Below the pieces are notes generated by a model that saw only the letters and a list, made by a program, of their open reading frames with translations, did not search any database and was not told where the DNA came from. A stretch of 64,000 bases of DNA, from assembly GCA_963773945.1 (NCBI GenBank), contig CAVZDD010000003.1, forward strand, positions 370,060 to 434,059, read 5' to 3'. Positions 56,043 through 63,036 of the stretch are shown one piece after another; positions within the stretch are counted from its first letter, which is position 1; the number at the start of each line of letters is the position of its first letter. The DNA is from an uncultured Thermoplasmata archaeon. Its GTDB lineage: Archaea; Thermoplasmatota; Thermoplasmata; Lutacidiplasmatales; UBA184. Both the position numbers and the translations under genes were made by a program.

Positions 56043-57076
56043 TGCACGTACTGCTGGCGCAGCTGGCGCCTCGCCGGGGCGACCTGGCAACGAATCTGGG
56101 CCGGTTGACCGCCGTCGTCCAGGCGCACCCGGCCGACCTCTACGTCTTCCCAGAGCTGTTCCTTTTCGGATACGCCCCGGGGGACCGGGTCCACCGAATG
56201 GCCCTGGTCGCCGGAGACCCCTCGGTCGCGGCGATGGCCGCCCTCGCGATGGAACGCCACACCGGAATCCTCGTCGGAGGCCCCTGGAGGTCGGACGACC
56301 GACCGGGCGAAGTCCACAACGCCGCCCTCCTGTTGGCTCCGGATGGATCGGTCCAGGTTCAGGTCAAGCGGTACCTGCCGAACTTCGGCCCGTTCGAGGA
56401 AGCGACGATCTACACACCGACCGACACGAGCACTCCGCTGGCGTTGGGCCAGCACCGGTTGGGGGTTCAGATCTGCTATGATGCCTACTTCCCGGAGGTT
56501 TCCCGGGAACTGGCCCTTCGCGCCGCGGTGCTCCTGGTCGTTCTCTCCGCCGCTCCCGTCACGTCGAAGGGATTGTTCGAGAAGGTCCTTCCGGCGAGGG
56601 CGGTTGAGAACGCTTGTCCGCTTGTCTACGTCAACCGGGTCGGCGTGGAAGACGGGATTGTCTTTGGAGGCGGTTCTCGCGCGTGGGATTCGAGGGGAGA
56701 ACCCCTCCCCGCCGAATCCCTGGAACTGGCGGGGGGAACCCCAGAGGAGCGACTCGATTTGGTCGAGATCGACCTCGATGATGTGCCCCGATGGCGCCCC
56801 TTCCGGCCGGTGCTCCGGGACGTCGCGCGGGACCGCCAGAACGCCCCCGAGTACACCGCCGGGCACCTTTCACCATCGCGACTCCAACCGACCCGTTATA
56901 GCCCGGCAGGTACCGAAGCCCCGACCGATGGCACGGACCGCCACGCTCGCCGAGCAACTCGCGTCCAAGCAACGGGAGATATCGGTCGCGGAATTCTTCG
57001 AACGGAATCGCCAGATCCTCGGATTCGACAATACCCAACGGGCCCTGCTCACCGCGGTCAAGGAGTCGGTCGATAA
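56042..57076 (+). CDS. Carbon-nitrogen hydrolase (nitrilase superfamily)
   Basis: Catalytic triad context FPELFLFGY (Glu), [10 protein letters not shown] (Lys), [11 protein letters not shown] (Cys). The last ~50 codons are low-complexity and overlap top6B by ~150 nt; the true C-terminus may be earlier. Confidence 0.7.
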
Positions 57077-58961
57077 CGCGCTCGATGCCGCCGAAGAGGC
57101 GGGGGTCCTGCCCGACGTATCGGTCGAGATCACGAAGGACGACTCCGGGCCAGACCGGTACCGGCTCGTCGTCATCGATAACGGACCCGGCATCCTGCGG
57201 CGGGAACTCCCGAACGTTTTCGGCCGCCTGCTCTACGGCTCTCGCTTCCACGCGCATCGCCAGTCCCGGGGCCAACAAGGCATCGGGATCTCGGCGGCCG
57301 TCCTCTACGCCGGACTGACGACGGCCCGACCCGTGAAAGTGACGTCCAAGGTCGAGGAGGAGGAGGCCGCCCACGTGCTCGAGATCATGGTCGACACTCA
57401 GCGAAACCTTCCCAAGGTCGTCAGCGAGGGCCTCGAGCTCTGGGACCGGCCCCACGGCACCCAGGTCGAGCTCGTCCTGAAGGCGAAGTACGTTCGCGGA
57501 CGGCAATCGCCCCTCGAGTATCTTCGAGGCACGGCGATCGTGAACCCCCACGCCCGGCTCCTACTCACCGAACCGGATGGCACTCGGATCACGTTCGAAC
57601 GGGCCTCCAACGAAGTTCCGCCCGTGTCCAAGGATGTTCTCCCTCATCCCTACGGTTTGGAGCTCGGCGAGCTCGCCGCGATCCTGAAGCAATCCAAGGA
57701 GAAGCGCCTCTCGGAAGCACTCCCCCGACGGCTGGCCGGCGTGACGCCGCGCGCGCTCAAAGAGATCCTTACCCAATCCGGCCTGTCGGGCAGGGAGGAC
57801 CCCACCACGATTCACGGAACCGAACTCGAGTCGCTGCTGACAGCGCTCCACTCGGTCACCCTTTTACCGCCCTCCGCGGAATCGCTGTCTCCGATCGGTT
57901 CGACCCTCATCAAACGCGGGCTCCGCAACGTCCTGGGCGAGCTCCGCCCCGACTTCTATGCTCCACCAGTCAGTCGCCCCCCCAAGATCCGCGGCGGCTC
58001 CCCCTTCCTCATCGAAGTGGGTCTCGTCTACGGCGGGTCGCTCCCCCCGGACCAGCCGATCCAGCTGCTTCGATTTGCGAACCGAGTGCCGCTCCTGTTC
58101 CAGCAGGGCGCCTGCGCCATCACCGCCGCCGTCGAATCCGTCGATTGGCGGCGCTACGGCCTCGACCAGCGCGGGGGCCAGGGACTCCCCGCCGGTCCGT
58201 GCATCCTGCTCGTCCACGTGGCGTCGACCCGCATCCCGTTCACGAGCGAGTCCAAGGAAGCCGTCGCCGAGGACCCGGAGATCCTCAAGGAACTCCAGCT
58301 GGCCCTCCAGGCCGTCGCCCGGCACCTCAAGTCCCATATCTCGCGGCAGATCCGCCGGGAATACGCGTCGGAGAAGTTCACCATCATCCGACGGATCCTA
58401 CCGCAGATCGCGGAGAAGTCGAGTCACCTCGTCGGAAAGCCGGTGCCCGACCTGACCCCGGTCATCACGGAAATCATGAACGTCGTCACGCTGGAGACCG
58501 CGACTCCGGAGAAGAGCGTCGGCGCCGGACTCACGGTCACGATCACTAACTATACGCCGCGGGCCCGCGTCCTCGAAGTCTTCGCGGAGATGCCCCCGGA
58601 GCTGGTGGGTGCCCTGCTCCCCACCCCCGCCGCCGACGGGGTCGACCCGGTTCTGGGCCGCGCGTGGTGGACTCTTCCCAAGCTCGCCCCGAACGCCCGC
58701 GCGGAACTTGCGCTCCGATGGCCGGCCGGCAGCGATTGCGAAGCGTCCGATTTTGACTGGTACATCGCGGGCGTGGACGAGTCCCATCTCCTGGGCGCGG
58801 ATGCCCTGCCCGGGGATTGGGACGTGCGACTGCCCCGCCAGGTCATCGAAGCGGCCGAGGCCGCGGAGGTCGCGGGTGTCGTCGCGCAGAACGTAACGGA
58901 AGAAGGGGAGGTGGACTACGATGGCGCCGAAAAAGCCGCCGAGCTCGAAGAAGACGACTGA
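56928..58961 (+). CDS. top6B: DNA topoisomerase VI subunit B
   Basis: ATG at 56928 inside the track ORF; [21 protein letters not shown] ATPase motifs (ESVDNALDA; VIDNGPGI; GQQGIG), transducer domain. Confidence 0.9.
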
Positions 58962-60079: not shown

Positions 60080-60502
60080 TCAACCCGGCGGCACGCCCAG
60101 CGCGGTCCGCCCCTCGTGCGACAGCAGGCGGGGCTCCTCGCCTTTCGGAAGGTACAGACTGTGCTTCCCGGCGAGGGTGAGTCGGTGCCAGTCGATTCCC
60201 TGGTCCCGAAACTCCTCGGGTTCCAGCATCGTGGTGCCGGCGGCCCGGTGCCGCTGCGGGCCGGCCGTGCCTCCGGGGGCGAGCAACATCAGGATGTCGG
60301 CGGCCTCCTCGTAGCGGACCCACTCCCGCGGGACGACCACGCGCATCCGAACGAGCTCGGGCCGCAGCTTCGCCTCGGTCTCGGTCTCGGTCCGGCCGAA
60401 GACGGCGTACTCGATCCCGCCGACCATCACCGTGGAATCGTAGTCGAAGCTCTTGCCGGCGAACTGGAGGACGTTCAGCGACAGGGTCTCGTCGTCGACC
60501 AC
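60080..60502 (-). CDS. Hypothetical protein (140 aa)
   Basis: Protein-like composition (VDDETLSLNVLQFAGKSFDYDSTVMVGGIEYAVFGRTE...); no family recognised. Confidence 0.4.
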   Translation of the reverse strand: MVDDETLSLNVLQFAGKSFDYDSTVMVGGIEYAVFGRTETETEAKLRPELVRMRVVVPREWVRYEEAADILMLLAPGGTAGPQRHRAAGTTMLEPEEFRDQGIDWHRLTLAGKHSLYLPKGEEPRLLSHEGRTALGVPPG

Positions 60503-60596
60503 GAACGCCCCACGAGGAGACCGTACTTAATCCGGGGGTGGGCTGCAGGGCGTCCGCTTACGGCAACCTGGGGCGACGCGTTCTCCGAGGGCGAGG

Positions 60597-60603
60597 TTAT
60601 AAA
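60597..60603 (+). promoter_or_regulatory. TATA box (TTATAAA) for the eL41 gene
   Basis: 41-47 nt upstream of the ATG at 60644; followed by a CGAGGCG/CGCCTCG hairpin (60605-60625) in the leader. Confidence 0.4.
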
Positions 60604-60643
60604 CCGAGGCGAATAACCCGCCTCGTCCTCGAGCGCGAACTGG

Positions 60644-60751
60644 ATGAAACGGAGTTCCCGGGTCTGGAAGAAGCGCGGCCACATGCGCTGGAAGTGGCGG
60701 AAGAAGCGCATGCGCCGCCGGAAGCGCGCGCAGAAGATGCGGAAGGCCTAG
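60644..60751 (+). CDS. rpl41e: Ribosomal protein eL41 (35 aa; not in the ORF track)
   Basis: [35 protein letters not shown] is extremely basic; the core [15 protein letters not shown] matches the eukaryotic/archaeal L41e signature (human [25 protein letters not shown]). Confidence 0.7.
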   Translation: [35 protein letters not shown]

Positions 60752-60797
60752 GGCGGGCGGTAGGTAGGTCCCGTCTTCCCTGCGGAGAGGCGCGACC

Positions 60798-61007
60798 CTA
60801 CCAGTCCAGCCGAGCGAGCGTGCGGGCCTCTTTCGTGCTCTTCTTCCACTGCTTGTAGTGGTCCTTGCAGAGCGGGGCCCGCCGGCCTGCCTCGGAGAGG
60901 TTCGGGAAGGCCTTCCGTACCTCGACCCGGGCGAGGGAACGGACGGACGGGCCGCCGCAACCGGGGATCGCACACGGGGCCGCGGCCCCGTCGGGGGAGG
61001 CGGTCAT
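60798..61007 (-). CDS. Small Cys/His-containing protein (69 aa), translationally coupled to sucD
   Basis: ATG overlaps the sucD stop (ATGA); CAIPGC...LCKDHYKQWKK gives four potential Zn ligands (C-x4-C...C-x2-H); basic C-terminus. Confidence 0.45.
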   Translation of the reverse strand: MTASPDGAAAPCAIPGCGGPSVRSLARVEVRKAFPNLSEAGRRAPLCKDHYKQWKKSTKEARTLARLDW

Positions 61008-61888
61008 CGCGAGCCGGTCTCCCGCAATCGCTGGGCCACGAGGGAGGGAACGTCGTAGGGGAAATCGGCGACGGTGGCGCCCGCCGCTTGGAGGGCACTG
61101 ACCTTGCTGGCGGCGGTGCCCCGACCGCGGGCGATAATCGCGCCCGCGTGGCCCATCCGCTTTCCCGGGGGCGCGGACCGACCCGCGATGTAGGCTACCA
61201 CCGGTTTGGTGAAATGGTGCCGGATGAACTCCGCCGCTTCCTCTTCCGCCGTCCCGCCAATCTCACCGACCAGGACGAGCAGGTCGGTGTCCGGATCCTG
61301 TTCGAACAGTGGCAGCGCGTCGAGGAAATTCGTTCCGACGACGGGGTCCCCCCCGAGGCCGATGCAGGTGCTCTGCCCGAGCCCGACCTCCTTGATCCCG
61401 TTCACGATCTCATACGTGAGGGTGCCGCTGCGCGAGATCACCCCCACCCGGCCCGGCCGGAAAACTACGTTGGGAATGATCCCGGCTTTGGCTTTCCCTG
61501 GCGAGGCGATGCCCGGACAATTGGGACCGATGATCCGGGTTCCCCGGAGCCGTCCGTAGTGATACATCGTCAGCATGTCGTGGAACGGAATGTGTTCCGT
61601 AACGATGACGACGAGGGGTATGCCGGCGTCGGCAGCCTCGATGAAGGCGTCCTTCGCGAAGGGAGCGGGGACGAAAATCACGGAGACGTTCGCGCCGGTC
61701 CTCGCGACGGCCGCGGCGACGGAGTCGAAGACGGGAACACCCTCGACTTGCGTTCCGCTCTTTCCGGGGGTCACGCCCGCGACCACCTGGGTACCGAAGA
61801 GTTTCATCTGGACCGTGTGGACCGTGCCCTGGTGTCCCGTGATCCCTTGGACGACCACCCGGGTGTTGGCATCGACCAGAACGCTCAT
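61004..61888 (-). CDS. sucD: Succinyl-CoA synthetase alpha subunit
   Basis: Real protein is the C-terminal 294 codons of the track ORF (MSVLVDANTRVVVQGITGHQGT...); phospho-His loop (GHAGAII); ATGA overlap with sucC. Confidence 0.9.
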   Translation of the reverse strand: MSVLVDANTRVVVQGITGHQGTVHTVQMKLFGTQVVAGVTPGKSGTQVEGVPVFDSVAAAVARTGANVSVIFVPAPFAKDAFIEAADAGIPLVVIVTEHIPFHDMLTMYHYGRLRGTRIIGPNCPGIASPGKAKAGIIPNVVFRPGRVGVISRSGTLTYEIVNGIKEVGLGQSTCIGLGGDPVVGTNFLDALPLFEQDPDTDLLVLVGEIGGTAEEEAAEFIRHHFTKPVVAYIAGRSAPPGKRMGHAGAIIARGRGTAASKVSALQAAGATVADFPYDVPSLVAQRLRETGSR

Positions 61889-63036
61889 GCCGGCGATCCT
61901 CCCGAGGTCCGAGGACGCTCGGCGGCGACCACGGCCTGCGCCGATGCTTTCAGGTCCGAGAGCGCCGTGATCCCCGCTTTCTGCAAGATCTCCCGGCCCA
62001 GGTCCTCGTTGTTCCCGCGAATCCGGGCCACGAGGGGGAACCGGTCCGAATCCGGCACCTGGGTCATCGCCGCGACCAGGCCCTTGGCCACCGTGTCGCA
62101 GCGGGTAACGCCCCCGAAGATGTTCAGGAAAACCACGGACGGCCGGGCCTTGGCCATCAGCAGAAAGGCCTCGGTGACCTTGGCCGGATCGTCGGTGCCG
62201 CCCAAATCGAGGAACACGCCCGGCTTTCCGCCGAATTGACCCAGCACATCGAGCGTCGCCATCGTGAGGCCGGCACCGTTCGCGATGACTCCGATATCGC
62301 CATCGAGCTGCACGAAAGCGATCTCCTTCTCCCGGGCGATCTCCTCGAGCGGGGTCCGGTCGTCCCGGATCTCGGCGTACTCGGGGTGCCGGAACCCGGC
62401 GTCGTCTTCGATGATGACCTTCGCGTCGAGCGCCACCAGGTGTCCGTCGACCACGGCCAGGGGATTGATCTCGACGAGCTCGGCGTCCTCCCTCTGGAAC
62501 GCGGTCCAAACGGAGTCGAGTACTCCTCCGAGCTCCTTGGAAGCCTGCGCTGCGAGGCCGAAGACCTCCCCCACTCGACGCTTCTCGTAGGCCGCGAGGC
62601 CGACGAATGGATGGATCGGAACCCGGGCGAGTTGGTCCTCGTTGAGCGACTCGATCTCCACACCCCCTTGACCGCTGGCGATGAGGAGAGGCACCCGAGC
62701 GCTCCGGTCGAGTGCGATGGAGAGGTAGAGCTCGCGCCCGACGGCGACCTTCGGTTCGAGGAGCAGCTCCTTGACGGTCTCGCCCTTGAAGTCCATCCCC
62801 AGCATCCCGGAGACCACCAACCGCAATTCCTCGGGAGTGACCGCGAACTTCACGGCCCCGCCCTTCCCCCGTCCGCCGGCGAGGACCTGGGCTTTGACAA
62901 CCAACGGAAGCGCGACCGCGCCGGACCGGACTGCCTCGTCCACTTCCGCCACGCTTCGAACGACTTGCCCGGTCGGGATCGGAATGCCGTAACGCCGGAA
63001 GATCTCCTTACCGCGCCATTCGGCCAGTTTGACCAC
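61885..63036 (-). CDS. sucC: Succinyl-CoA synthetase beta subunit
   Basis: ATP-grasp N-domain and CoA-ligase C-domain (VKLAEWRGKEIFRRYGIP...). Confidence 0.9.
   Translation of the reverse strand: MVKLAEWRGKEIFRRYGIPIPTGQVVRSVAEVDEAVRSGAVALPLVVKAQVLAGGRGKGGAVKFAVTPEELRLVVSGMLGMDFKGETVKELLLEPKVAVGRELYLSIALDRSARVPLLIASGQGGVEIESLNEDQLARVPIHPFVGLAAYEKRRVGEVFGLAAQASKELGGVLDSVWTAFQREDAELVEINPLAVVDGHLVALDAKVIIEDDAGFRHPEYAEIRDDRTPLEEIAREKEIAFVQLDGDIGVIANGAGLTMATLDVLGQFGGKPGVFLDLGGTDDPAKVTEAFLLMAKARPSVVFLNIFGGVTRCDTVAKGLVAAMTQVPDSDRFPLVARIRGNNEDLGREILQKAGITALSDLKASAQAVVAAERPRTSGGSPA

Follow-up and report, generated by a model that had tools for sequence, protein, structure and literature searches.

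The closest described counterpart of the gene considered here is archaeal eL41, in which a peptide of ~14 residues is buried between h27, h44 and h45 and is followed by a helix of ~20 residues (Coureux et al. 2020, PMC7005279). Arg15 of this protein contacts a conserved h45 cytidine, which is ac4C1479 in Pyrococcus abyssi (PMC7005279). In Pyrococcus 30S and 70S particles, the N-terminal hook of eL41/eS32 lies beside the P site and touches modified bases, and the C-terminal helix reaches domain III of aIF2-gamma and the subunit interface (PMC7005279; PMC11724365). The newer name eS32 reflects a protein that stays with the small subunit (PMC11724365). In eukaryotes, the eL41 helix forms bridge eB14, again with the h27/h44/h45 pocket (PMC9932298). 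Bacterial bS22, from Mycobacterium and other actinobacteria, and mitochondrial mS38 are small basic peptides of the same small-subunit pocket (PMC7005279; PMC11724365). Archaeal L41e has been described as overlooked owing to its size (Yutin et al. 2012; Coureux et al. 2020, PMC7005279), and a 2023 review lists eL41 as '+/-' in Euryarchaeota (PMC9932298).

Within the 64-kb stretch of DNA analysed here (the window), whose host is a soil archaeon of the Thermoplasmata, uncultured and related to Candidatus Lutacidiplasmatales, we identified a 35-codon open reading frame (ORF) that is almost certainly rpl41e (arCOG06624), a single-exon, stand-alone gene for the ribosomal protein eL41, recently renamed eS32. 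A preliminary description of this DNA had proposed an eL41 gene passed over by gene calling; full-length homology, the relatives, purifying selection and an empty gap in the gene calls of GCA_049581325.1 support that proposal. The ORF list and the translation of the window place the ATG at 60644 and the TAG at 60749-60751 on the plus strand, exactly the interval and translation first reported. The gene and its surroundings comprise the following features.

60080-60502, minus strand: gene of 140 aa, divergent from rpl41e, with a 141-nt promoter region common to both
60597-60603, plus strand: TATA-box-like TTATAAA, putative rpl41e promoter, a conserved A/T box at a fixed distance in relatives
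60605-60625, plus strand: perfect 7-bp inverted repeat CGAGGCG-N7-CGCCTCG (60605-60611 and 60619-60625), not conserved
60644-60751, plus strand: ORF read as rpl41e, archaeal long form of eL41/eS32, 35 codons plus TAG, on the basis of translation, homology, a frame open in 35 of 35 sequences and homologues named L41e
60644-60685, plus strand: codons 1-14, archaea-type N-terminal extension, aligned residue for residue with that of P. abyssi
60686-60748, plus strand: codons 15-35, basic core helix common with eukaryotic eL41, helical in the AlphaFold2 model and identical to human eL41 at 16 of 22 residues
60774-60781, plus strand: pyrimidine run TCTTCCCT, within the 46 nt that separate rpl41e from the convergent gene, possible terminator
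60798-61007, minus strand: ORF of 69 aa, convergent with rpl41e, whose stop is 46 nt away; included as a gene in both public call sets

The candidate rpl41e is 108 nt long and its frame runs from stop to stop over 60617-60748; inspection of the sequence found no alternative start between the upstream in-frame stop and ATG 60644. By direct count the product contains 9 Lys and 11 Arg, that is, 20 of 35 residues (57%), and it is of low complexity. The gap that holds the ORF measures 295 nt, from the 140-aa gene to the 69-aa gene, and its remaining cover consists of three long overlapping ORFs (60538-60858 on the plus strand; 60527-60973 and 60475-60711 on the minus strand), which bears out the earlier view that the gap otherwise carries only spurious long ORFs. 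These are of the kind that arises by chance in GC-rich DNA, here 62-70% GC. Maximal ORFs elsewhere in the window also exceed the called genes, at Top6B (872 aa at 56343-58961, plus strand, versus 677) and at sucD (501 aa at 61004-62509, minus strand, versus 294), and illustrate the tendency of ORFs in GC-rich sequence to run on upstream past the true start. The overlap is 41 nt between Top6B and Top6A and 4 nt between sucC and sucD. Across the whole 64-kb window, ARAGORN found no tRNA genes and no Rfam family reached its gathering threshold.

Both flanking genes lack a Pfam or NCBIfam family, in the case of the 140-aa gene even at E <= 10. A 141-aa counterpart of the latter occupies the same position on three metagenome contigs (L083-L085). 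The 69-aa product contains a Cys-x4-Cys ... Cys-x2-His arrangement (CAIPGC ... CKDH) and ends in ...LDW, and in many relatives a reverse-complemented tryptophan-stop sequence ('CTACCAG / TCACCAG') lies downstream of eL41. Judged from these residues, 60798-61007 and the tryptophan-stop ends in relatives suggest a conserved small zinc-binding protein.

In a phmmer comparison with all PDB chains, the best matches of the 35-residue product were 6sw9_0 and 9fny_A2 from P. abyssi and 6skf_Bk from T. kodakarensis, at E about 1e-4. The two P. abyssi chains are named '50S ribosomal protein L41e / 30S ribosomal protein aL41 / eS32' and the T. kodakarensis chain 'LSU ribosomal protein L41E'. The alignments, which take in the conserved eL41 core MRxKWxKKRxRRxKR, cover residues 1-33 in both partners, with large HMMER bias terms, and 21 of the 33 residues are identical to P. 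abyssi eL41 by direct count from the phmmer alignment. A profile built from 20 homologues (A2) reached 33.2 bits against the PDB (E 2.4e-7), and all 22 of its matches with E <= 1 were eL41/eS32 chains from archaea, apicomplexans and other eukaryotes.

Two controls addressed the contribution of composition. When the cryo-EM-verified P. abyssi eL41 was used as the query against all stop-to-stop segments of at least 20 aa in the six frames of the whole window, the ORF was the sole match among 1,190 segments (23.5 bits, E 2.3e-6; runner-up 8.5 bits). No second eL41 match occurs within the 64-kb window, so there is one copy in this part of a genome of roughly 2 Mb. The real peptide scored 24.4 bits; none of 2,000 composition-preserving shuffles (0/2,000) reached this score, the best of them giving 11.1. 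Because the six-frame and shuffle controls were both negative, composition alone cannot account for the eL41 match.

A search of a large protein database, with the ORF padded by 5 in-frame upstream codons as the query, returned 30 homologues with the common pattern MKRSSR.WKK.G..RWKW.KK.MRR. Several bear the JGI name 'large subunit ribosomal protein L41e', and one is the NCBI entry '50S ribosomal protein L41e [Candidatus Aciduliprofundum]'. BLASTP against human eL41 reported no alignment, as expected for a short low-complexity peptide, and Foldseek of the AlphaFold model against the PDB gave 0 matches, the peptide being too short for the method.

The preliminary description had recommended a search with the Ribosomal_L41 profile, which turned out to be uninformative. 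Neither Pfam PF05162 (Ribosomal_L41) nor NCBIfam matched the ORF, even at E <= 10. In control searches, PF05162 scored human eL41 at 46.3 bits, P. abyssi eL41 at 17.7 and Aciduliprofundum L41e at 18.3 against a gathering cutoff of 22.3, and it did not match the JGI-named L41e P0021. Since a structure-verified archaeal eL41 also falls under the threshold, the PF05162 negative says little on membership; it reflects a eukaryote-centred model together with the HMMER treatment of biased composition. NCBIfam matched none of the eL41 sequences tried, human included, which suggests that it holds no model for the family. As a consequence, pipelines built on Pfam and NCBIfam leave archaeal eL41/eS32 unnamed even where the ORF is called.

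Comparison with known systems places the product beside the archaeal long form. It is collinear from Met1 with the proteins of P. abyssi and P. furiosus (6SW9 chain 0, 9FNY chain A2) and of T. kodakarensis (6SKF chain Bk), at 35 versus 36-37 aa. With P. abyssi it has in common the extension MKR..R.WKK.G.M, R15, the core RWKW.KKR.RR.KR and the predicted peptide plus helix of ~20 residues. Unlike the Pyrococcus proteins, it carries Ser-Ser rather than Arg-Pro at residues 4-5, Arg and Met, as in eukaryotes, in place of Ile19 and Ile23, and a different C-terminal tail; its host is a mesophilic soil Thermoplasmata archaeon. The L41e of Candidatus Aciduliprofundum (WP_081440616.1; P0030), which belongs to the Thermoplasmata in the broad sense, is likewise 35 aa long, 71% identical and stand-alone, with no ribosomal protein operon context; there, however, neither Top6A nor sucD lies nearby, and the gene is properly named in RefSeq. 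The 25-aa eukaryotic eL41/RPL41 (PF05162) shares the core helix by direct reading, but the 13-residue N-terminal extension is absent from most eukaryotic members. The core resemblance to eukaryotic and archaeal eL41 noted at the outset therefore stands (16/22 versus human), although the better comparison is with the 35-37-aa archaeal form that includes the N-terminal extension, and not only with the 25-aa eukaryotic core. PDB phmmer and profile searches revealed no sequence match to bS22 or mS38, which are analogues or very distant relatives; the ORF belongs to neither family.

The alignment of the 20-sequence family localizes the constraint on the protein. Invariant residues are K2, R3, S4, S5, R6, W8, K9 and K10 in the extension, and R15, W16, K17, W18, K20, K21, M23, R24 and R25 in the core, R15 being kept in 20/20 aligned homologues. 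All residues that the structure papers highlight and that alignment can check are kept in the ORF. Given the alignment, AlphaFold2 predicted a confident helix over residues 16-34 (pLDDT about 90; mean over the model 84.9), preceded by a break at residues 13-15 and, before that, an N-terminal segment. This predicted N-terminal peptide plus helix of ~20 residues is the architecture described for archaeal eL41, though a single helix is not specific.

By analogy with the ribosomes of P. abyssi, P. furiosus and T. kodakarensis, residues 1-14 would be inserted as a hook into the h27/h44/h45 cavity of 16S rRNA, next to the P site and the decoding centre. Arg15 would contact the conserved h45 cytidine that is ac4C in Pyrococcus. 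The C-terminal helix of ~20 residues would lie on the subunit interface as part of the central intersubunit bridge, eB14 in eukaryotes, and may touch aIF2-gamma during initiation. We infer these molecular contacts, as well as the transcription start, terminator and ribosome binding site of the gene.

To investigate the distribution of the gene, we scanned the GTDB species genomes for Top6A, which gave 80 loci in Thermoplasmata metagenome-assembled genomes (MAGs), including Candidatus Lutacidiplasma silvani, a Lutacidiplasmatales archaeon, and, more distantly, Methanomassiliicoccales. A 35-codon ORF follows Top6A, in the same orientation, in 31 close GTDB relatives whose Top6A is about 78-94% identical, and it is also present on the three metagenome contigs L083-L085, which carry the homologue P0001. 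In these 31 species genomes and three contigs the ORF is downstream of Top6A and upstream of sucD/sucC, so that the micro-ORF which the preliminary description had suggested looking for between Top6A-proximal genes and sucD was indeed recovered. Four further close loci lacking the ORF (L015, L018, L022 and L034) have just 1.0-1.6 kb of sequence downstream of Top6A, and in L028, L039 and L041, also close relatives, the 5 kb or more available downstream of Top6A contains no eL41 ORF. The ORF was not found within 6 kb of Top6A at the distant loci (L040 and L042-L082; Top6A <= 72% identical), which are mostly from Methanomassiliicoccales and unclassified Thermoplasmata MAGs. The more distant homologues P0019, P0021 and P0030 reside in unrelated neighbourhoods, and the eL41 gene is stand-alone at every locus inspected. 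Collectively, the Top6A-eL41-sucDC arrangement is specific to one clade, and the eL41 gene has moved repeatedly.

For the analysis of selection we used 35 sequences representing 34 distinct DNA versions, which come from different species genomes and are not assembly duplicates; the ENA and NCBI copies of the locus are identical in DNA to the window and hence carry no evolutionary information. Relative to the window, codon differences comprised 344 synonymous and 81 non-synonymous changes. Nei-Gojobori dN was 0.03-0.18, with dS from 0.19 to > 2 and often near saturation, and the NG86 dN/dS ratio was about 0.03-0.18. ORF length is constant in the relatives, and the stop codon at its fixed position varies among TAG, TGA and TAA. 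The eL41 frame is the only one open in 35/35 sequences, with 93% amino-acid identity to the window versus 62-75% in the other five frames, and the intergenic DNA on either side cannot be aligned among these genomes. The ORF is thus under strong purifying selection.

Of the alternatives to a ribosomal eL41, the one that survives best is an eL41-like paralogue, a basic and conserved micro-protein that works outside the ribosome, for instance in nucleic-acid binding or regulation; even so, we regard it as very improbable. Some room for it comes from the search for a second copy, which covered 64 kb of a roughly 2-Mb genome, from the use of homology to assign the protein to the ribosome, and from the dispensability of eL41 in yeast (PMC9932298), which makes functional drift conceivable. 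However, the positions that contact rRNA in Pyrococcus structures (hook residues, R15 and core helix) are invariant, purifying selection is extremely strong, each locus holds one copy with no second match in the window, and paralogy among archaeal ribosomal proteins is very low, at 1.01 per protein (PMC3353972).

A chance Lys/Arg-rich frame in GC- and purine-rich intergenic DNA, resembling eL41 through composition only, retains practically no credibility. Such a frame would fit the 20 of 35 residues that are K or R, the large HMMER bias terms, the empty Pfam, NCBIfam, BLASTP and Foldseek results and the several long spurious ORFs in the region. The shuffled peptides nevertheless stayed at 11.1 bits or below versus 24.4 for the real one, and the ORF keeps its frame, its length and its sequence through 34 distinct DNA versions at dS often near saturation and dN/dS <= 0.18, in genomes between which the flanking intergenic DNA is not alignable. 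This conservation pattern refutes the reading. Just as little credence attaches to one of the overlapping ORFs (106 aa on the plus strand, 148 aa or 78 aa on the minus strand) being the true gene and the 35-codon frame incidental: a naive caller that ranks by length would prefer these longer ORFs, but across the 108-nt region the other frames are just 62-75% conserved at the amino-acid level, each gains stops in 1 to 35 of the 35 sequences, the long ORFs run through unalignable DNA beyond the eL41 ORF and both public gene-call sets omit them, so that this reading is rejected and the eL41 frame is the only conserved one.

With the ORF read as rpl41e, its annotation history can be followed in public copies of the locus, which we located through the neighbouring Top6A: GCA_049581325.1 (JBAURT010000097.1, 64,088 bp) and a 2.0-Mb ENA contig (ERZ25039507 contig_6243). 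In the gene calls on record for GCA_049581325.1, the interval separating the 140-aa gene from the 69-aa gene is empty. The ENA contig, of identical DNA, has a 35-aa call at the equivalent position, without a name. The exact protein is present in a public collection as P0031, also unnamed; within its 90%-identity cluster, some members are labelled 'large subunit ribosomal protein L41e' by JGI/IMG, one of them on 152 contigs. NCBI MAG records hold versions named 'hypothetical protein' of 46 or 81 aa. The initial designation of the gene as unannotated accordingly applies to the GCA_049581325.1 calls, which omit it, and in a looser sense to NCBI-annotated MAGs, but not to the ENA contig, which has a call, or to the JGI/IMG cluster members named L41e. 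Its omission from one calling run is owed solely to its 108-nt length and odd composition. The accompanying remark that such micro-genes are routinely missed agrees with what Yutin 2012 and Coureux 2020 state for L41e.

Most of the public calls P0001-P0029 bear arbitrary N-terminal extensions of 4-46 residues that show no conservation. The conserved part of the homologues always starts at the Met equivalent to 60644. Gene callers choose upstream starts in GC-rich DNA.

The upstream region contains a putative promoter for rpl41e. The TTATAAA box, which had been placed ~45 nt upstream, is present 47 nt before the ATG, and an A/T box is conserved in relatives. Across 33 relatives, A/T frequency is 0.85-0.94 at -46 to -41 from the ATG versus a background of 0.31, the box extends from -46 to -39, and the A/T-richest 8-mer begins at -48 to -46 in 26/33. 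Typical box sequences are TTATAAA, CTAATAAA and CTTATTAA. The archaeal TATA box is typically centred about 26-27 nt upstream of the start site, often with an A/T-rich element near -10/-11. Because of this usual TATA-to-start spacing, transcription would begin ~15-20 nt upstream of the ATG, and the leader would be short, roughly 15-20 nt. Transcription of rpl41e is most likely driven by a TATA-box promoter belonging to this gene, with its centre ~44 nt before the ATG.

A second element was observed in the same 33 relatives, namely an A/T dinucleotide at -28/-27 (73% and 55% A/T), after which comes a G/C block at -26 to -19 that is 88-100% G/C; the two together correspond to about 60616-60625 of the window. 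The dinucleotide and the block may represent a promoter-proximal element plus an initiator region.

The preliminary description had also placed a hairpin in the leader. The perfect 7-bp repeat is present at 60605-60625, but its folding is not unusual relative to shuffles (z -0.95 to -1.48), and the equivalent regions of 33 relatives have no excess structure (mean z -0.16; 1/33 below -2). Its likely position is downstream of the TATA box but ahead of the transcription start, and hence outside the leader. Being neither significant nor conserved, the hairpin is rejected as a functional element and regarded as incidental.

Downstream of the gene, a run of 8 or more pyrimidines is found no further than 60 nt from the stop in 15/35 sequences, versus 6/35 and 4/35 in two controls. 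This offers a weak hint that TCTTCCCT may act as an archaeal oligo-pyrimidine terminator. A scan for sigma-70 promoters and intrinsic terminators is not applicable to archaea; its sole terminator-like match, at 60820-60838, falls inside the convergent 69-aa gene.

Taken together, the proposal names the right gene in a family already known, whose omission also has a known cause. It adds no new biology: earlier work documents the protein, where it sits in the ribosome and how readily its gene is overlooked. The practical outcome is a small annotation correction for one MAG (GCA_049581325.1). More broadly, tables of ribosomal protein presence and absence drawn from automatic gene calls are unreliable for micro-proteins, with rpl41e as an example.

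The N-terminally extended long form appears near-universal and strongly selected across soil Thermoplasmata (Lutacidiplasmatales and relatives), and in public records it is omitted, labelled 'hypothetical' or given a false N-terminal extension. On evidence from this one clade, the patchy '+/-' distribution of eL41/eS32 in Euryarchaeota could be largely an annotation artefact, an idea that we take seriously while leaning slightly against it, and one that is not original, having been raised by Yutin 2012 and Coureux 2020. If it is true, a systematic re-scan of archaeal MAGs might alter the dating of the origin of eL41 relative to the archaeal ancestor of eukaryotes.
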